A program made the position numbers and the translations under genes. From an uncultured Spirochaetales bacterium (GTDB taxonomy: Bacteria; Spirochaetota; Spirochaetia; Sphaerochaetales; Sphaerochaetaceae), in assembly GCA_902773355.1 (NCBI GenBank), contig CACYEI010000030.1, forward strand, positions 30,822 to 94,821: a DNA stretch of 64,000 bases, written 5' to 3'. Positions within the stretch are counted from its first letter, which is position 1; the number at the start of each line of letters is the position of its first letter. The notes under the pieces are model-generated. The model was not told where the DNA came from. It saw only the letters and a list, made by a program, of their open reading frames with translations, and did not search any database. Shown here in pieces: positions 21,598 to 30,547 of the stretch.

Positions 21598-23076
21598 TTA
21601 CTCAGCTGTAGTAATCACTTCAGCATCATCTTCTACTGTAGTTTCTGTAGTAGCTTCTGTATTTATTGGGTTTTCAGCACTTGTTGTGTTTTCTGTACTT
21701 TCTGTACTTTCTGAACTCTCAGAAGACTCAGAAACATTTGTAGAATTATTTTTCAATAACCTGTTATTCTGAATTATCTTATCTACTAGGTCTATTATCT
21801 TAGGTAATGCCAAATTTTCATGTTTTTCACTCCCAAGTACAGCATTTCTCATATCCCCGTAAATGTTAAGAGCACCATTGACTTCAAATAAGAATTCTGA
21901 AATTGATCTGCTTGAATATGAAGGTTCCTCCTGCTCAGCAGTCTGTTCAGTGGTTTCACTTTCTTGCTCAGTTTCTTCACTGGCTGATAAATCACTATGT
22001 AATGAATCACCACGTACAGCGGTTACCCTAACAATCAAATAGCCTTCACTATTAGATAATTCTATTGGACTAAAGACATGACCTAATTCAGCAGAATGTA
22101 ATTCTTTAGCCAAATCTTCAGTATATACACTGTTTAGTTTACCTAATGAATCACGTGCACTTACCCCATATATATATGAAGAAGATGATACATTTACCGC
22201 TGCGTTTTCAACTGTAGTAATTCCACTAGAATAAATATCTGCTGCTTCCTCAAAATTAGTTTCTGCTAATGAAAGTGCTGAAGCTAAAACATTTTCATCT
22301 ATATAAGCCTTTATCAATTCAGGTTCATTTTGAAATATATATTCTTTTATTTCATCTACTGTTGGTTCAATTTCATTCCCTTCTTCATCAATATTTTTTG
22401 TCATAGATGAAATATCATAATCTTGAGCTAAATAATCTGGATATACATGATAATCTATTACAAAATATTCAAAACTTCTGGTATTATCTGCAATTTCACC
22501 AATAACATCTTTTTCAACCTGTGTTAAATTAGGTGTCTGTATATCTTCTACCACTACAGTATATGGATAATTTTTTTCATAAAAGGTTCTGATAACCTGT
22601 CTTTGCTGTGCTCTGGTATTTCTGTAAACTTCATCATCATACCCAGTCCCATTTGTTGAATAAACTCCAGAATCAACTATAGTCTTATTAACCAAATCAT
22701 TTGAAAAGCCAATACCAGCTTTTTTAGCCATCTGATTTACAGCCTGAAAGATAAGCTGTTGTTGATATGCAGAATAAAAAGAATAAATCATCTGGGTAGA
22801 ATCTTCATGTTCGGATGCAGTTTGAAATGAAGTATCCCCATTTATTGTTTCACTGAATACGTTATATGGCTCATATTTAACAGCCTCTTTATTATAGTAA
22901 CCATAAACTGTTGAATCATCTGTGTTTTGTCTAATTATAACCAAAAAATAATACAGCCCACCAACCATTAACAGAGCCAAAACAGCTATGATAATAGTTG
23001 TAAGAATTCTTCCTGGAGTCCATTCATTTTTCTTTTTATTTCTTTTCTTCACTTCTGTGTCGGTTTTATCAGACAT
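21598..23076 (-). CDS. Membrane-anchored hypothetical protein with acidic S/T/E-rich tail (possibly PpiD/SurA-like chaperone fold)
   Basis: Basic N-terminus plus one TM helix, a long periplasmic region, and low-complexity SESSESSESTESTENT and EETEQESETTEQTAEQEE segments. Confidence 0.45.
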   Translation of the reverse strand: MSDKTDTEVKKRNKKKNEWTPGRILTTIIIAVLALLMVGGLYYFLVIIRQNTDDSTVYGYYNKEAVKYEPYNVFSETINGDTSFQTASEHEDSTQMIYSFYSAYQQQLIFQAVNQMAKKAGIGFSNDLVNKTIVDSGVYSTNGTGYDDEVYRNTRAQQRQVIRTFYEKNYPYTVVVEDIQTPNLTQVEKDVIGEIADNTRSFEYFVIDYHVYPDYLAQDYDISSMTKNIDEEGNEIEPTVDEIKEYIFQNEPELIKAYIDENVLASALSLAETNFEEAADIYSSGITTVENAAVNVSSSSYIYGVSARDSLGKLNSVYTEDLAKELHSAELGHVFSPIELSNSEGYLIVRVTAVRGDSLHSDLSASEETEQESETTEQTAEQEEPSYSSRSISEFLFEVNGALNIYGDMRNAVLGSEKHENLALPKIIDLVDKIIQNNRLLKNNSTNVSESSESSESTESTENTTSAENPINTEATTETTVEDDAEVITTAE

Positions 23077-23133
23077 GTTATCCTCTTAAAAACAATAATT
23101 GACTGTTTGAAATTATTCAAAACTGTGAAGAAA

Positions 23134-23162
23134 ATATTACAAAAATGTTTTTTAACTGTCAA
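23134..23162 (-). promoter_or_regulatory. Sigma-70 type promoter (TTGACA-17 nt-TAATAT)
   Basis: On the minus strand, TTGACA (23162..23157), a 17-nt spacer and TAATAT (23139..23134), about 55 nt upstream of the ATG at 23076. Confidence 0.6.
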
Positions 23163-23312
23163 TCTATAACACTGCATTTTGTTTATTTGAATTTTGTTTG
23201 TATATTTATCATATCCATTGCATAAATGAACAAATATGTAGATGAACAAATTTAATGGAAAAATAATGGAGAAAATTTTATTAAAGGTAAAATATGAATT
23301 TTAGGAAATAAA

Positions 23313-23582
23313 ATGAATAAATTACTTTATAGGTTTGAAATGTTAATCTTAGCCTCTGAAAAAGATGAAAACACAGAACCACTGTGGTTAAGATTTTATA
23401 TCATACAAATGACTTTTTATATTTTTATTAATGAAAAATCATGTCTATCAAAAGATCAAGTTCATGAAGCATATCTAAAAATCAAGGAAGAATACAATGA
23501 ATTGAAAAAATTTATGAAAAAAAATGAGTTCAGTATAAAAAATGTTGATAATTTAATAAAAAGTATAAAAATATTTTCATAA
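23313..23582 (+). CDS. Hypothetical protein
   Basis: 89-aa ORF with an AGGAAA RBS and no recognisable motif. Confidence 0.3.
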   Translation: MNKLLYRFEMLILASEKDENTEPLWLRFYIIQMTFYIFINEKSCLSKDQVHEAYLKIKEEYNELKKFMKKNEFSIKNVDNLIKSIKIFS

Positions 23583-23615
23583 ACATCATTTTTGAAATTA
23601 CCATATTTCAAACCC

Positions 23616-23670
23616 CATTTGAGTAAAAAAGAAACAAAATAATAAACAAATTTTTCATTTGAGTAAAAAA
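23616..23670 (+). repeat. Two perfect 15-bp direct repeats CATTTGAGTAAAAAA with 40-bp phasing (candidate enhancer/UAS)
   Basis: Copies at 23616..23630 and 23656..23670, 60-115 bp upstream of the -24 element at 23730. Confidence 0.6.
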
Positions 23671-23729
23671 TAACCATTTTTATAAAGAAATTATGATTAT
23701 ATTTAAATTACCCCCTCTTTTTTTTATGT

Positions 23730-23745
23730 TGGCACAAAATATGCT
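23730..23745 (+). promoter_or_regulatory. Sigma-54 type -24/-12 promoter
   Basis: TGGCAC-AAAAT-ATGCT. The GG and GC are spaced as in the TGGCAC-N5-TTGCW consensus, 22 nt upstream of the ATG at 23768. Confidence 0.7.
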
Positions 23746-23767
23746 TATTTAATTTACAGAGGTTTAA

Positions 23768-24646
23768 ATGAGAACAAAAAATTACAATGATGAATCTGAT
23801 ATTAAATTTAATAACAAAGAGGAAGAAACAAGAGATTCACTTAATACTTATATCCATGAAATAGAAAAAATATCACTTTTAAATCCAAAAGAAGAATATG
23901 AACTGGCATTGAAAGCAAAATCTGGGGATAATGAAGCTAGGGAGAAACTATTAAATTCTAATTTAAGATTTGTAGTAAGTGTAGCTAAATCCTTTCAGAA
24001 CAGAGGATTACCATTAGAAGATTTGATAAGTGAAGGTAATATAGGATTAATAAATGCCATAGATAAATTTCAACCTGAATTAGGCAATAAATTTATAAGT
24101 TATGCTGTATGGTGGATAAGACAGTCAATAATTAAAGCTATTGGAGATAAATCAAAATTAATCAGACTTCCAATGAATAGAAATGTACAGCTAAATTCAA
24201 TTCAAGCAGCAAAAGCTCTTTTGGAAAAAGATGGCAGCGAGGCAACAATTGAAGAAATTGCACAATCTTGCGGAATAGATGAAGACAATGTAAGTTCTCT
24301 TCTTAACATATCAAATAATGTCTGTAGTTTAGATGCACCACTAACAGAAGATGAAAGCCATACCTTTGGTGATATTCTTGAAGATAAGGCAGATGGTCCA
24401 GATGAAATTCTGCTAACCAATTCATTAACTCAAGCTATTGATAATATAATGTCTAATTTTACTGAACGTGAAAAAAATATCATAATACTAAGATATGGTC
24501 TGCATGGAGCTAAACCTCTTAGCTTGAAGGAAATAGGAGAAATATACGGCCTCTCTAAAGAAAGAATCAGACAGATTGAAAAAAAGATAGTTTTCAGACT
24601 CTCAAAAGATGAAAGTGTTGCTGATTTAAAAGCCTATATAGCTTAA
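23768..24646 (+). CDS. Sigma-70 family RNA polymerase sigma factor (RpoS/RpoD-like, regions 1.2-4)
   Basis: 292 aa with NLRFVVSVAK, EGNIGLINAIDKF, YAVWWIRQSI (region 2) and LSKERIRQIEKK (region 4.2). Confidence 0.88.
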   Translation: MRTKNYNDESDIKFNNKEEETRDSLNTYIHEIEKISLLNPKEEYELALKAKSGDNEAREKLLNSNLRFVVSVAKSFQNRGLPLEDLISEGNIGLINAIDKFQPELGNKFISYAVWWIRQSIIKAIGDKSKLIRLPMNRNVQLNSIQAAKALLEKDGSEATIEEIAQSCGIDEDNVSSLLNISNNVCSLDAPLTEDESHTFGDILEDKADGPDEILLTNSLTQAIDNIMSNFTEREKNIIILRYGLHGAKPLSLKEIGEIYGLSKERIRQIEKKIVFRLSKDESVADLKAYIA

Positions 24647-24786
24647 ATGCCATGTTTCACTACTTTTTATAACACGTTCTCAAAAAAATAAAATAAAGAT
24701 TTGATTCTGCAAGTATTCTAATACTGTAGTAATTTCATAAAAGTGCAAGAACTTGCAAAAATTTTATCCCAAGACCTATAAGATGA

Positions 24787-24936
24787 TTAAAAGAAAAGTC
24801 TTTATTAAAAATAGATGACAGCTTTAGAAAAATAATTATAGTAAGAAATAATATAAAAAAATGGATGGATCAAAAAGGTGTCCTTATTCTAAGCCTAAAA
24901 GAATTTCTTTTAAATCCAGATTCAATTAAAAGCTAA
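24787..24936 (+). pseudogene. C-terminal remnant of an AAA_14/DUF4143 ATPase paralogue
   Basis: A 49-codon open stretch, ...IDDSFRKIIIVRNNIKKWMDQKGVLILSLKEFLLNPDSIKS*, resembles the C-terminal end of the neighbouring ATPase. There is no upstream coding sequence. Confidence 0.5.
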
Positions 24937-25294
24937 TAAATCCAAACACTATTCTAACTTTTTATATGTATCTGGAAAATGCTCTTAAAGCGTTTGTAAC
25001 TTTCCCAATTTTAAAATCAGAACCTAATTCAAGACATGTGAAAAGAAATTTTCATATGAAATAAAATATCCAATTTGTCCCTGTAAGTCTGTAACAATAT
25101 CATCTTCTCTTAAATTATTCTTAAATTCTTCTTCAGACCAACCCATGTCATTACAATATTTTAGTTTTTTCCGCCAGCTGTTTTTTATTCATACTTCCAA
25201 TAGATCATTTTCAACAAAACAGTTATAAAATCTTTGTTTAAGAAAATTAGAAAAAAAAACATATTTTAGAAAAATGTGTAAAAATATAAAATAT

Positions 25295-25331
25295 GTGTCA
25301 CAAAATCAAAAAAATATTGAATTTGTGACAC
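25295..25331. repeat. 10-bp perfect inverted repeat GTGTCACAAA / TTTGTGACAC (candidate operator or hairpin)
   Basis: Arms at 25295..25304 and 25322..25331 with a 17-nt spacer, 47-83 nt upstream of the ATPase ATG. Confidence 0.5.
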
Positions 25332-25377
25332 TCAACAGATACAATCTATGTGAATAAAGAAATTGGATAACCTTAAA

Positions 25378-26611
25378 ATGGAGATTATTAGAGAAAAATA
25401 TTTAAATGAAATAAGACGTTTCTATGACTCAAACCTTATAAAAGCTTATAAAAGTTATAACTGGCGTTAGAAGATGTGGAAAATCAATAATTCTTAAACA
25501 AATTGAAAGTGAATTGTTATTAAAAAATCTTATTTGTTATGACCATATTATTACTATCAATTTTGAAGACATTAAATATGATAAATTGAATACATATAGA
25601 AAATTAAACGCTTATATACTTAAACAAATAAAAGACAAAAAAAAATATTATATACTATTAGATGAAATACAGCATGTTAGACAATTTGAAAAAGTGCTAT
25701 CATCCCTAAAAGCAACTCAAAATGTTTCTATTTTTGTTACTGGTTCTAATTCAAAATTATTATCTGGTAGATTAGCAACTTTACTTGTTGGTAGATGTAA
25801 AGAATTTAAAATAATTCCTTTTACATATTCTGAATATTTAGAATATTTTGAAAAAAATAGGATAGAATTAAAAAATAATCCTCTAAGTGATTATTTGAAA
25901 TATGGTGGGATGCCACAAAGATTAGATTATAGTGAAGAAAAAGATATAATTGAATATCTTAAATCTGTTTATAATGGAATTGTTAATAAAGATATATGCA
26001 ATTCTAAATCTCATATTAATAAAGAAACATTCAATATTATTTCAAAATACATAATGAATAATACTTCAAAAGAATTTTCAACACAGAACGTGGTTGATTA
26101 TTTCAATAAATATAATAATAGTAATTTAGATAGAAAAGTTGTTTACAGATATTTAGAAAAACTAGAAGAAGCATGCCTAATATCTAGAGTTCATAGATAT
26201 GATATTGCATCTAAAAGGAATTTAAAATCTATAGAAAAGCAATACGCAATTGATAATGGTTTCATACTTGCATGTTCTGAATCAAACAATGTGATTTTAT
26301 CGCACTTTCTTGAGAACGCTATTTATAATGATTTAGTATTTAAAGGTTATGATATAAAAATAGGTAAAACATATAAAGGTGAAATAGACTTTGTTGCAAT
26401 TAAAGATTCTAAAAAATGCTTTATTCAAGTTGCTTATTTACTTTCAGATGAACAGGTAATTCAAAGAGAATTTGGAGCTTTTAAATCTATAAAAGATCCA
26501 TCACCTAAGTATGTTCTTTCTCTAGATGATTTTGATATGTCAAGAGACGGTATTACGCATATTAATATCATAGATTTTTTGCTTAACAAAAAAGAATTAT
26601 ATTTATCATAA
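25378..26611 (+). pseudogene. AAA_14/DUF4143 family ATPase, frameshifted by a 10-bp tandem duplication
   Basis: The ATG at 25378 gives MEIIREKYLNEIRRFYDSNLI, then a stop at 25468. CTTATAAAAG is present twice in tandem (25435..25454). Removing one copy restores ...NLIKVITGVRRCGKSIILKQIESELLLKNL..., joining Walker A in frame to the 365-aa ORF. Confidence 0.8.
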
Positions 26612-26659
26612 TACGCCATAAAAAATATTTTTAGTTATTGACATAAAAATCACATGATA

Positions 26660-26800
26660 TTATTGCAAATGTGGGAAACCGCAGAATTATATTCAATCAA
26701 CGTATGCAATACCTAATAAAGAAAAATGGAGCAGGAACAGGCTTCATTAATTCATATTCCTGATTCATTTAAAAAAATAATTGTAATTTTGGTTTACACT
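26660..26800 (+). pseudogene. Second C-terminal remnant of an AAA_14/DUF4143 ATPase paralogue (frameshifted)
   Basis: The fragments NYIQSTYAIPNKE and EQASLIHIPDSFKKIIV, in two frames, parallel CFIQVAYLLSDEQ...KSIKDPSPKYVLSL of the neighbouring copy. Confidence 0.4.
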
Positions 26801-26820
26801 TTTCTGAACAAAAATCTAAA

Positions 26821-27648
26821 TTAAATGGAATTAAAATATAAACTTTTTAATAATAGATACCTGTTATATTTTTCTTCTTTTAAAAAATGAACTTCTCTAC
26901 TTTGAAGTACTCCATTATCATAATTTTCATATTTATTTAATTGAGCAGAAGTCAAATCATACACCTTATTATCTATAACATTAAAGCAATGAATGCTTCC
27001 ATCTTCATGAGCAGTTCCATAAACATCACCACCTAATAAATCCTGTACAAGAAAAGATGTTACAGAACACTGACCAAGTGTTCTATTTAAGGCAGTCCAT
27101 TTATTCTGCATTCTAGTAGCACAGGTTTTACGGCTCCACAAATCAAATAAAGCACAGTAAATACTAAAAACTTTTTTATCTGTTTCTGTAGACAAAGAAA
27201 AACCTTTATAGTTTAACACATCATTAAATAAATTTTTACACCCTTTTTCTATCAAATTAAAGACTTTTAAAAAATTTCCTGAATACCATGGATCTTCTAT
27301 ATTTTCATTTTTTAAAAGTAATGAAATTTTTCCATCCGGATCATAATCAGTCATATGTAAAATATTACTTAAGTTATTATTATCCATAACTTTTATTAAA
27401 CTGAACTGTTTATAATCATACTTATCAATTTGTCTGGCTTTATGATTTATATTTTTAATTCCATGCATATTCAACATTTTTACGGCAGGAGGATACACAG
27501 AATTTCCTATTTCTTCTGTACTTGTAGCAGCACTATCAATCTGAAAATATTTACTTAAGCCAGCCTTAGTTACTATATCCTGAAACACATATTGAGCCAT
27601 AGGACTTCTACAAATATTACCATGACATACAAATAAAACTTTTATCAC
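26821..27648 (-). CDS. Low-molecular-weight protein-tyrosine phosphatase fused to a YunG-like C-terminal domain
   Basis: VCHGNICRSPMA (CX5R-S) and the DPWY general-acid loop lie in the first ~150 aa. The last ~120 aa carry GQCSVTSFLVQDLLGG, resembling YunG-family proteins. Confidence 0.7.
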   Translation of the reverse strand: MIKVLFVCHGNICRSPMAQYVFQDIVTKAGLSKYFQIDSAATSTEEIGNSVYPPAVKMLNMHGIKNINHKARQIDKYDYKQFSLIKVMDNNNLSNILHMTDYDPDGKISLLLKNENIEDPWYSGNFLKVFNLIEKGCKNLFNDVLNYKGFSLSTETDKKVFSIYCALFDLWSRKTCATRMQNKWTALNRTLGQCSVTSFLVQDLLGGDVYGTAHEDGSIHCFNVIDNKVYDLTSAQLNKYENYDNGVLQSREVHFLKEEKYNRYLLLKSLYFNSI

Positions 27649-27717
27649 TGTAAATCCCTTTTTATAATCATATTTTTTACAGTCTTATTAATTTTTTAAT
27701 CATAATCAATAGAGGTT

Positions 27718-27749
27718 AAAAAAATAGGGTTAGAGATAATCTCCAACCC
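27718..27749 (-). terminator. Rho-independent terminator after hsp20
   Basis: On the minus strand, GGGTTGGAGA-TTA-TCTCTAACCC (one G-U pair) followed by TATTTTTTT. Confidence 0.7.
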
Positions 27750-27819
27750 CTGAGGTATTTATGACTCATATAAAACACACAGAGTCATTAAAAGTTACAA
27801 AATTATTTGTTATTCTTAA

Positions 27820-28230
27820 TTATTTGTTAATCTTAACTTCAATTTTTTTAGGTTGCTCTACAGGTTTTTTAGGTAAGGTTACTGTTAAGATACCATTCTT
27901 AAATTCAGCTGAAATAAGAGATTCATCTACACTTTCAGGAAGTGAGAAAGATCTATCAAACTTAATATAACTACGTTCTTTAATAATAAACTTCTTATCA
28001 TCTTTTTTTACAGATTTTTCAGAAGAAATATGAAGAACATGTTTTTCAACATTAACATTAACATCATCTTCTGAATATCCTGCAAGCTCTGCTTCCACAT
28101 AATAAGCATTTTCATCTTCTATTACATCCACTGATGGAATCTTACTATTCTTAACACCCCAGTTCCCAAATACATTATTAAATAAAGTCTCAAAATCATT
28201 ATCATTAGTTCTAGTCATCATATAATTCAT
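27820..28230 (-). CDS. Hsp20/alpha-crystallin family small heat-shock protein
   Basis: Start set at the ATG at 28230 (AGGAG 8 nt upstream). The alpha-crystallin domain carries AELAGYSEDDVNVNV and NGILTVTLPK motifs. Confidence 0.9.
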   Translation of the reverse strand: MNYMMTRTNDNDFETLFNNVFGNWGVKNSKIPSVDVIEDENAYYVEAELAGYSEDDVNVNVEKHVLHISSEKSVKKDDKKFIIKERSYIKFDRSFSLPESVDESLISAEFKNGILTVTLPKKPVEQPKKIEVKINK

Positions 28231-28284
28231 AATCACATCTCCTATTTTATAATTTCTATCAGTTTAAACTGACACTTATGTCTT

Positions 28285-28300
28285 AGCATTTACTGTGCCA
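28285..28300 (-). promoter_or_regulatory. Sigma-54 type -24/-12 promoter upstream of hsp20
   Basis: The minus strand reads TGGCAC-AGTAA-ATGCT, with the same spacing and the same ATGCT -12 element as at 23730. It lies about 55 nt upstream of the hsp20 ATG. Confidence 0.65.
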
Positions 28301-28546
28301 AGTTTTAAAAATATAGTTGTATATATAAATTTTATCATATTAAACAATTTTATTATCTGTTCAATTCTCTTTTAATGTATCTTTTTTACCCATATGGTAA
28401 AAATTACACAATTTATGAGTAATTTATACTCAATCAAATAATAATAAGTTTATATAACTGGATTTATAACTGAAAACCTCATTTTCTGTTCAGTTTTTTT
28501 AAATAAAAAAGATTATAGAAATAAAAGAACTTAACAGGAGAAACAT

Positions 28547-30547
28547 ATGAAAAAAAGTATAAGCATATTTTTTTCTTTTCTATTACTAATATGTATGTAT
28601 TCATGTGCTGATGAATACAGCAGTGGTACTATGCATCTCTATATACATAGTGATGAAATAGCTAAAACAATAAAATTAGATGACAGCATTTCAGATATAA
28701 CAAAATTTTCAGTTTCTGGCATAGGACCTGGCGGAAAAACTTTCACTGTAGATTCTACAAGTTCATCTATAATAATAGAAGGATTACCTTTAGGAAACTG
28801 GGAAATTAAGGCTAATGGCTATAATACAAAAGGAAAGATAATTGCAACAGGCTCTTTAAATTTTACACTATCTGGTAATCAAGATCCTCAAACTATCAAC
28901 TTAAATACTATTTCAGGTACAGGTTCTCTACAATTACGTTATGAATGGAATGAAATTATGGAAAATTCTACTGTAGAAATAGAAATGTATAGTAATAACT
29001 ACCATGACTGTTATTTAAAGAAAACACTTGTAGTTCCCCCTTCTTCTTCTAATATATCAGTTAATTTTACAAACCTGCCTTCAGGTTACTATTTATTAAA
29101 GAGCAAACTAAACAACAATAATGTAACATTTGGAGGATGTGTAGATGCTGTTAAAATAATTAATGGAGAAAAAACTACAGGAATCATTAATTTTTCTGAA
29201 GAAGTTAATTCTGATTATAAAGAATTATATATCCCATATATAAATGGTTCCCCGCTCACAGCTCACATATCAGGACTTTCAAAAATTAATTCAACTAAAG
29301 ACCTTCAGTTAGAACTAATCTTAGACAAACAGTATGACCCGTCTTATAACTATATACTACAGTGGTACTTGGATGGTGTTCTTATAGAAGAAACAGATTT
29401 AAAAATAAATGAAAACAACATAAGTATAAACTCAAATTCAGGTATGCATATCTTAAATGCAGTAATGTTAAACAGAGAAAAGCATATCTGTGGATCTCTA
29501 ACAGAGAAATTTAAAACATCAGTTACAGGTAAAACTGGCGTACCAGTAAAAGATGGAATAATTACTGCTTTGACAAACAAAAACCTAATTATTGATAACA
29601 CGTCAAAATTTGGTTTATTACCAGACAATAAATGCGTAGTTGTAACACCAGATAGAGGAATAATGCAATTATTCAGTATAGTAAACTCTAGACCTGTAGT
29701 AGAACAAACTTTAACAGCATCAGAAAAAGGAACAGAATGGCTTTATGACACTACTGCCTTATTTTCAAATAAGGACATGAACATGTTTCTTCTAAATGAT
29801 TACAAAATAAACATGGATTACATGTTCTATAATCCATCCACTGGAAAAATAGAAAATGCACTACTTGGTGACAATATATTAAGACTAGAAGGGTCTACAA
29901 ACATACCTAGTTTCTGTGAATTTAATGGAACTAGATATGCCACTTTTATTCCATCTGAAGATGGAGGCGGGGTAATAGCTTCAATAGACAGCAAATGCAG
30001 TAAAGGCTATCAGGTTGTCTCTAGTAATTCAGGGCCATATTTATGCTGTGTATTAGATGTAAATGCCTCCATTGGTCCAAAAATTATGAAAGGCTATGAC
30101 GACAAAATTGTACTTTCAGGTTCCGGTACTTCCATATATTCAGCATCTTTTAATGGTACACAAAGAACAAGTAAATGGTATGAATCAAAAATAGGTATAT
30201 CTGATATTACAGATTTTATATTCTTGGACCGAACAAATATATTAGTAACAAACGGAAATAGAATTGTTCACTGCAGATATAATATTGGAAGTCAGACATG
30301 GAATAGTATTACATCTTTTGAAGCTAATGTTAAACATCTGATTAGTGGAAATACATCTCAATATTTTTATATATGTGATTCAGATAACAATATAATAACA
30401 TATTCAAATAACTATTATGCCTTTAATAAACTGGATACAACCTGTTTAGAGGAAGATATTGTAAAAATAATGATAACAACAGATAACCATATGTTATGCC
30501 CATGCAGTGATGGTTCTATTGTTATTTTAACAATTATAGAGGATTAG
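28547..30547 (+). CDS. Large lipoprotein, function unknown
   Basis: GGAG RBS and signal peptide with Cys (LLICMYSCADE). The N-terminal half is beta-rich and Ig-like by composition. No catalytic motif recognised. Confidence 0.6.
   Translation: MKKSISIFFSFLLLICMYSCADEYSSGTMHLYIHSDEIAKTIKLDDSISDITKFSVSGIGPGGKTFTVDSTSSSIIIEGLPLGNWEIKANGYNTKGKIIATGSLNFTLSGNQDPQTINLNTISGTGSLQLRYEWNEIMENSTVEIEMYSNNYHDCYLKKTLVVPPSSSNISVNFTNLPSGYYLLKSKLNNNNVTFGGCVDAVKIINGEKTTGIINFSEEVNSDYKELYIPYINGSPLTAHISGLSKINSTKDLQLELILDKQYDPSYNYILQWYLDGVLIEETDLKINENNISINSNSGMHILNAVMLNREKHICGSLTEKFKTSVTGKTGVPVKDGIITALTNKNLIIDNTSKFGLLPDNKCVVVTPDRGIMQLFSIVNSRPVVEQTLTASEKGTEWLYDTTALFSNKDMNMFLLNDYKINMDYMFYNPSTGKIENALLGDNILRLEGSTNIPSFCEFNGTRYATFIPSEDGGGVIASIDSKCSKGYQVVSSNSGPYLCCVLDVNASIGPKIMKGYDDKIVLSGSGTSIYSASFNGTQRTSKWYESKIGISDITDFIFLDRTNILVTNGNRIVHCRYNIGSQTWNSITSFEANVKHLISGNTSQYFYICDSDNNIITYSNNYYAFNKLDTTCLEEDIVKIMITTDNHMLCPCSDGSIVILTIIED

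Follow-up and report, generated by a model that had tools for sequence, protein, structure and literature searches.

A predicted sigma-54-dependent control region with conserved, 40-bp-spaced dyads upstream of an RpoS-like sigma factor gene in spirochetes

The 64,000-nucleotide stretch of contig CACYEI010000030.1 from an uncultured Spirochaetales bacterium that is analyzed here (hereafter, the window; 30.7% GC, that is, AT-rich) encodes a 292-amino-acid, group-2 (RpoS-like) sigma factor of the sigma-70 family, and the region immediately upstream of this gene (positions 23616-23768) appears to be its control region, in which a sigma-54 type promoter is combined with two candidate enhancer sites. 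We estimate the probability of the overall mechanism, namely sigma-54-dependent, enhancer-controlled transcription of a second sigma factor in a sigma cascade, at roughly 0.8. Judging from the sequence comparisons, the system belongs to an established type, in which a sigma-54 promoter and an NtrC-type enhancer form part of a sigma cascade; what the analysis adds is a conserved motif with a spacing rule, along with the indication that the cascade from sigma-54 to another sigma factor is not specific to Borrelia. The elements of the region are the following.

23621..23635, forward strand: UAS-1, distal candidate enhancer site, GAGTAAAAAAGAAAC, with its center about 128 nt before the predicted transcription start
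23661..23675, forward strand: UAS-2, proximal candidate enhancer site, GAGTAAAAAATAACC, exactly 40 bp from UAS-1, with its center about 88 nt before the predicted start
23730..23745, forward strand: sigma-54 type -24/-12 promoter, TGGCAC-AAAAT-ATGCT, identified from sequence, chance statistics and conservation
23756..23767, forward strand: predicted 12-nt leader, ACAGAGGTTTAA, with a predicted start site near 23756 and the ribosome-binding site GAGG at 23759-23762
23768..24646, forward strand: group-2 (RpoS-like) sigma-70 family gene, 292 amino acids, assigned with Pfam and NCBIfam

The promoter sequence TTGGCAC-AAAAT-ATGCT spans positions 23729-23745, with the GG doublet at 23731-32 and the GC doublet at 23743-44, which is the canonical offset of 12 nt, and 22 nt separate its end from the ATG at 23768. 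Compared to TGGCAC-N5-TTGCW, there is a single mismatch: the first T of TTGC is an A here. An earlier reading of this DNA made from the sequence only had described exactly this promoter, with the same doublet spacing and distance to the start codon, and had reported no convincing TTGACA/TATAAT pair in the interval; both statements hold, the latter in a sigma-70 promoter scan of the forward strand that yielded no match of at least 10/12 in 23583-23767. For the pattern TGGCAC-N5-WTGCW, 0.10 occurrences would be expected in 64 kb, but the window has two, a number that none of 100 shuffled sequences reached. Both copies are intergenic and point at a gene, at distances of 22 nt and about 55 nt from the respective start codons.

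To assess conservation, we used 80 genomic loci encoding homologs of the sigma factor, 19 from spirochetes and 61 from Bacteroidota, Gemmatimonadota, Ignavibacteria and other groups; closer relatives (L084/L085, L087 and L104) were reached by protein look-up and stand outside these 80. A site of the form TGGCAY-N5-YTGCW is present within about 170 nt 5' of the sigma gene in 15 of the 19 distant spirochete loci, and a sixteenth (L009) carries the -12 variant TTGTA; the three loci without a site look like other paralogs, with long N-termini. All three closer relatives carry the site as well. Overall, it is present in 19 of 23 spirochete sigma loci (one -12 variant counted), compared to none of the 61 loci from other bacteria, in support of the original proposal that the sigma gene is transcribed by sigma-54 RNA polymerase. 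The L084/L085 locus, whose sigma protein is 67% identical to that encoded in the window and which shares the PPDK-MgtE-YitT synteny, retains TGGCAC-AATTT-ATGCT at the identical 23-nt distance to the ATG, with diverged flanks. Furthermore, TGGCAY-N5-[ATC]TGC[ATC] was found 22 times on both strands of 317 kb of spirochete sequence: 18 of these sites are located directly 5' of a sigma homolog, one precedes hsp20 in the window, and three lie elsewhere. The loci with the promoter and dyad design are labeled Treponema, Sphaerochaeta, Rectinema, Brevinematales and unclassified Spirochaetales; the labeled relatives nearest to the window are uncultured Spirochaetales, Treponema and Sphaerochaeta.

Upstream of the promoter, two perfect copies of CATTTGAGTAAAAAA start at 23616 and 23656, exactly 40 bp apart, as the sequence-only reading had pointed out, and the two 40-bp repeat units are alike over 37 nt at 81% identity. 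The presence of this 15-mer is thus confirmed, but the 15-mer as such is probably not the functional unit: the conserved 15-bp element is shifted by 5 nt to the right (23621-23635 and 23661-23675). Across the family, this element is a 15-bp dyad with the consensus GTGTCAAAATGACAC (GTGTCA-AAA-TGACAC), a perfect dyad, and by sequence comparison the repeats in the window appear to be AT-drifted copies of the conserved dyad GTGTCA-N3-TGACAC. With at most one mismatch, CATWTGRGTAAAAAA is found three times in the window against 0.21 expected; the third copy of this type, CATATGGGTAAAAAA, precedes the second sigma-54 site, that of hsp20, by about 85 nt.

Nearly every locus contains one to three copies of the dyad upstream of the sigma-54 site, 60 to 270 bp from the -24 element. 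Examples include GTGTCATAATGACAC in L004, GGGTAAAAATGACCC and GGGTCATAATGACCC in L087, GCGTAAAAATGACCC in L084 and three copies in L020; elements homologous to UAS-1 were identified in L084 and L087. The spacing of the dyads is exactly 40 bp in L087, L004, L013, L015, L018, L020 (twice), L021 and L031, with further 40-bp pairs in L006, L007, L011, L084 and L104 and a spacing of 35 bp in L082; 11 of 13 dyad pair distances are exactly 40 bp. Matches to the dyad of at least 11/15 occur at a density of 6.5/kb in the 270 nt preceding sigma-54 sites compared to 0.17/kb elsewhere, a 38-fold difference. A weight matrix built from the distant loci, without the window or L084, ranked the hsp20 dyads 1st and 5th, UAS-1 18th and UAS-2 71st among 127,972 window positions, and only the regions preceding the sigma gene and hsp20 were found to combine a dyad with a sigma-54-like site in the window. 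The 40-bp spacing is maintained across loci whose sigma proteins are 44-67% identical; together with the relation of the repeats to the conserved dyad, this retention backs the earlier interpretation of the repeats as enhancer sites.

The second candidate member of the regulon, located 4.5 kb from the sigma gene, shares with it both the promoter type and the dyad element.

27820..28230, reverse strand: hsp20, small heat-shock protein gene (Pfam HSP20, NCBIfam Hsp18/Hsp20)
28285..28300, reverse strand: second sigma-54 type promoter, TGGCAC-AGTAA-ATGCT, upstream of hsp20, found by pattern search
28377..28409, reverse strand: two candidate enhancer dyads of hsp20, GTGTAATTTTTACCA (28409-28395) and GGGTAAAAAAGATAC (28391-28377)

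A metagenome scan with the Hsp20 protein of the window yielded seven usable homologous loci (59-71% protein identity, 43-47% GC), none of which had been used to derive the dyad consensus. Six of the seven carry a TTGGCACG-N4-ATGCT-type (TTGGCACGGTAAATGCT-type) site, the seventh (L099) being a variant with GTGCA at -12, and all seven contain two dyads 40-41 bp apart, including a perfect 15/15 GTGTCAAAATGACAC dyad in two loci.

A candidate activator is encoded close to the sigma gene in some of the relatives. In L087, L020 and L104, genes for a histidine kinase and a response regulator are located 3-5 kb upstream of the sigma gene. The regulator consists of Response_reg, Sigma54_activat with an intact GAFTGA motif and HTH_8 domains, with AtoC, NtrC and ZraR as the best models, and the linked kinase contains a PAS domain in L104. 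The enhancer-binding activator postulated in the sequence-only reading thus has a plausible counterpart in these three relatives, and contigs of matching length hint at such a linkage with the sigma gene in three more. The activator is 72-80% identical over many Spirochaetales and Sphaerochaetaceae assemblies. The sites of NtrC-type HTH_8 regulators have a 6-N3-6 inverted geometry with an A/T center, the same as that of the dyad. We infer that the linked NtrC/AtoC-type activator is the protein that binds the dyads and that sigma-54 and its cognate activator are present in the genome from which the window comes. The Rrp2 protein of Borrelia has been placed in the same AtoC/NtrC-type class (PMC3162934).

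Under the mechanism that we propose, the sigma-54 RNA polymerase would form a closed complex at the -24/-12 element (23730-23745), and an Rrp2-like regulator of the NtrC/AtoC class, with a cytoplasmic, sometimes PAS-containing histidine kinase as its partner, would bind at 23621-35 and 23661-75. The bound activator would form an active oligomer, loop to the promoter and open it with ATP; two or three dyads fit the assembly of such an oligomer. Transcription would start near 23756; the ribosome-binding site would then stand at the 5' end of the mRNA, in a leader of about 12 nt. Because the same promoter and dyad design is found at hsp20, one signal would switch on a chaperone directly along with a second, response-widening sigma factor.

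The predicted leader is unstructured (z = +0.64). The sequence-only reading had called its length of about 12 nt unusually short. The short gap between promoter and gene is indeed there, but it is not an oddity: the window, L084, L008, L018, L021, L015 and L082 all have 22-25 nt between the GC doublet and the start codon, and one clade looks leaderless. In L087 (9974-10004), which represents this clade of 275-amino-acid members of the sigma family, the GC doublet lies only 12 nt before the ATG and there is no ribosome-binding site, so that the sigma-54 promoter would produce an almost leaderless mRNA. As far as the compared sequences indicate, the short leader appears to be a trait of the sigma gene family.

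Several observations weigh against this interpretation. No rpoN and no activator gene was found in the 64-kb window or in the 7 kb that follow it on k87_347122 of ENA ERZ1029115, a 101.5-kb metagenome contig that matches the window; a motif search of the window for GAFTGA and the RpoN box produced no match, and none of the fetched relative loci contains an RpoN box. The -12 element is ATGCT rather than TTGCT, and the A at this position is shared with the hsp20 promoters (ATGCT-type in six of the seven homologous loci). The dyads of the window are weak compared to the consensus, with 11/15 matching positions in UAS-1 and 9/15 in UAS-2, and most of the dyad symmetry is lost, and the hsp20 dyads of the window are 18 bp apart, not 40. 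Finally, in Borrelia, the one case studied by experiment, Rrp2 did not bind to the 238 bp of DNA preceding rpoS, and its action has been described as enhancer-independent (PMC1976401).

The last of these observations also bears on an alternative that we consider unlikely, namely, that the sigma-54 promoter is genuine while some regulator other than the activator binds the dyads, either a repressor or co-activator of the HrcA/CtsR/HspR type or a Fur/BosR-like protein, with the activator working from solution. The genes under control are stress genes (hsp20, and the sigma gene that is found beside groES), and the half-site GGTCAAA resembles the CtsR heptad. However, CtsR binds a direct repeat whereas the dyad is inverted, and the dyads never overlap the promoter but lie upstream of it at distances varying from 60 to 270 bp, a placement that fits enhancers and not operators. 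Moreover, the dyads occur only along with sigma-54 sites, and the activators linked to the sigma gene carry HTH_8 domains. In Borrelia, where Rrp2 was not seen to bind upstream of rpoS (PMC1976401), direct repeats in that region have been ascribed to BosR (PMC3037356), and a perfect BosR-type TAAATTAAAT is present in the window at 23747-23756 on the reverse strand, between the -12 element and the predicted start. This word, which has four perfect copies in the window, is neither conserved in L084 nor enriched in the window, and we therefore set it aside as a regulatory site, taking it as a probable chance occurrence in AT-rich DNA. Two specific candidates were rejected: the dyad is not a CtsR box, being an inverted and not a direct repeat that is located far upstream of the promoter, and the dyads are not operators of a divergent groES gene, given that there is no groES nearby in the window or in L084 and that the hsp20 loci share the dyads.

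Another alternative, to which we attach little credence, is that the sigma gene is transcribed mainly by read-through from the gene upstream or from an unrecognized sigma-70-type promoter, with the -24/-12 element being of little weight here. The upstream gene is a conserved small open reading frame (ORF).

23313..23582, forward strand: conserved small ORF, 89 amino acids, directly 5' of the sigma gene and on the same strand

The interval between this ORF and the sigma gene showed no terminator, so that read-through is possible, and a long rpoS transcript that originates from upstream flg genes exists also in Borrelia (PMC1976401). Weak, 9/12 sigma-70-like matches are located at 23545-23572, and -10-like words are common in AT-rich DNA; nevertheless, with no good match before the ATG, a sigma-70 promoter was rejected as the alternative. 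Read-through, for its part, may take place alongside the sigma-54 promoter but is no substitute for it in explaining the conserved elements, since it does not account for the retention of the -24/-12 site and the dyads in loci whose sigma proteins are 44-67% identical and whose GC content ranges from 30 to 69%. Chance matches in AT-rich DNA, or a functionless local tandem duplication, could be invoked considering that the two similar 40-bp units fit a simple duplication and that sigma-54-like words with at most two mismatches occur in the window at chance level (24 against 20 expected), but this possibility is effectively refuted by the comparative data: the near-exact promoter pattern is found twice where 0.10 occurrences are expected, and more than 20 independent loci, as well as a second gene family, show the same position, orientation, motif and 40-bp spacing.

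The classification of the sigma factor as group-2 and RpoS-like is based on the presence of sigma-70 regions 1.2, 2, 3 and 4 (Sigma70_r1_2, r2, r3 and r4 in Pfam) and on the top NCBIfam matches, which are RpoS models; these models are proteobacterial and all score below the cut-off, the best being TIGR02394 with 256 bits against a cut-off of 378.7 bits. One relative of the protein is named RpoD/SigA in NCBI (Spirochaetales bacterium).

The small ORF upstream of the sigma gene shows no match to any Pfam or NCBIfam family. Its homologs occupy the same position in L084 (48% identity), L087 (35%) and L104 (E = 1.6e-13), with weak matches in L005 and L020, and together form a family of small proteins of 89-152 amino acids with the motif PLW-RFY-IQMT (L084 7796-8107, L087 9571-9900, L104 15931-16389). 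In L084 and L087, the enhancer dyads overlap the 3' end of this ORF. The small protein could be a partner or a regulator of the sigma factor.

On the other side of the sigma gene, 870 nt (24647-25513) contain no ORF of at least 50 amino acids, no tRNA and no Rfam match, and gene callers place only ORFs of 30-40 amino acids there; an Rfam scan of 22900-28700 gave only sub-threshold chance matches. An identical sigma gene is found in two loci from other samples (L002 7249-9526 and L003 1944-2866, to be compared with 25514-26611 of the window), where the downstream AAA_14/DUF4143 ATPase gene is split (90 and 142 amino acids) and is followed by genes for a DnaG-type zinc-ribbon protein and a phage integrase, a difference consistent with strain-level variation through the insertion of a mobile element.

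The hsp20 leader of the window (28228-28275, reverse strand) contains the palindrome TCAGTTTAAACTGA followed by a stem that flanks the ribosome-binding site, and the hsp20 leaders of relatives (L093-L097; for example, L095 1425-1503) share a conserved GTTGGTTG...CCAACGG stem and a stem over GGAGG (z = -3.7). These hairpins may represent an RNA thermometer on top of the sigma-54 control.

Outside the spirochetes, ten Gemmatimonadota loci (L016, L026, L034, L035, L039, L040, L052, L057, L061 and L079) contain a gene for a sigma-54 activator with a GSFTGA motif 1-5 kb 5' of a short sigma-70-family homolog. No -24/-12 site was found before the sigma gene in these loci.

Among the known systems, the closest parallels come from Borrelia. 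The rpoS gene of B. burgdorferi has a mapped sigma-54 promoter, and the Rrp2-RpoN-RpoS cascade of Borrelia, in which RpoS serves host-adaptation genes rather than general stress, has been called unique in a 2025 review (PMC12472547). The pathway also requires BosR, a requirement first ascribed to the binding of TAAATTAAAT repeats (PMC3037356); in a 2024 reinterpretation, BosR is an RNA-binding protein that controls the stability of the rpoS RNA (PMC11109971). By its sequence, the locus described here resembles the Hk2-Rrp2-RpoN-RpoS system in that, in a spirochete, a canonical -24/-12 element stands directly before a short group-2 sigma-70-family gene. The resemblance would extend to a regulator of the NtrC/AtoC class with a PAS-domain cytoplasmic kinase, here seen in relatives (PMC1976401, PMC12472547), and to an upstream gene on the same strand from which read-through is possible. 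Unlike Borrelia rpoS as reported, the locus has a conserved tandem dyad as a candidate enhancer, shows no conserved equivalent of the BosR repeats and has hsp20 as the predicted co-regulated gene. Considering that a conserved candidate enhancer is present and that the BosR-type repeat is neither conserved nor enriched, the locus would work like the Borrelia cascade but as a different variant of it.

The architecture of the enhancer is reminiscent of the enteric glnAp2 promoter, in which tandem NtrC sites are located upstream of a sigma-54 promoter. In both cases, at least two sites lie about 80-150 bp upstream of the -24/-12 element, with a 6-N3-6 dyad geometry and an A/T-rich center that in the spirochetes are those of the family consensus. 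The protein that binds them, predicted in the case of the spirochete locus, is a response regulator that combines receiver, AAA+ and HTH_8 domains. The half-sites and the spacing differ, however, GTGTCA with a fixed 40 bp here compared to TGCACC with about 32 bp for NtrC, and the predicted targets encode a sigma factor and a chaperone instead of functions in nitrogen assimilation. A small heat-shock gene with a sigma-54 promoter is not without precedent either: ibpB of Escherichia coli is such a gene, but in a different phylum; it is not known to share an enhancer with a sigma factor gene, and it stands outside any sigma cascade.

An indication of the physiological role comes from Treponema denticola, in which heat, oxygen and osmotic downshift jointly induce TDE0937, a sigma-70 family gene beside groES (TDE0934), and the Hsp20 gene TDE1029; RpoS homologs are stated to be missing in this organism by the same authors (PMC2965109). 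In nine of the spirochete loci analyzed here, the sigma gene is likewise adjacent to groES. The co-induction of TDE0937 and hsp20 is what a shared promoter and enhancer would predict, the connection with the present loci being based on synteny and inference, and the inducing signal is, by analogy with T. denticola, probably proteotoxic or oxidative stress. Rrp2 of T. denticola is a predicted sigma-54 activator with no known target, and the Hpk2/Rrp2 pair has been described as unstudied (PMC12070737). In the literature searched, neither TDE0937 nor TDE1029 has been linked to sigma-54 or Rrp2.

A broader evolutionary scenario, to which we give even odds, is that the cascade from sigma-54 to an RpoS-like factor is an ancestral stress module of Spirochaetota, in which a core activator of the Hk2/Rrp2 type reads dyads spaced by 40 bp and switches on hsp20 and a secondary sigma factor. 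If so, Borrelia would be a derived case in which the enhancer was lost, the dyad motif could show why the DNA-binding domain of Rrp2 stays important in Borrelia, and TDE0937 and TDE1029 would belong to the regulon of the oxygen-sensing Hpk2/Rrp2 system of T. denticola.

The Rrp2-RpoN-RpoS pathway is central to the biology of Lyme disease, and its activator has no known DNA site (PMC1976401). The similar wiring, with a conserved candidate enhancer, across free-living, gut and oral spirochetes would provide an evolutionary origin for the Borrelia pathway and gives a candidate recognition sequence with a spacing rule for activators of the Rrp2 type. It would also offer a candidate mechanism for the unexplained stress co-induction of a sigma factor and Hsp20 in T. 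denticola (PMC2965109) and a first predicted regulon for Hpk2/Rrp2 of that organism (PMC12070737).

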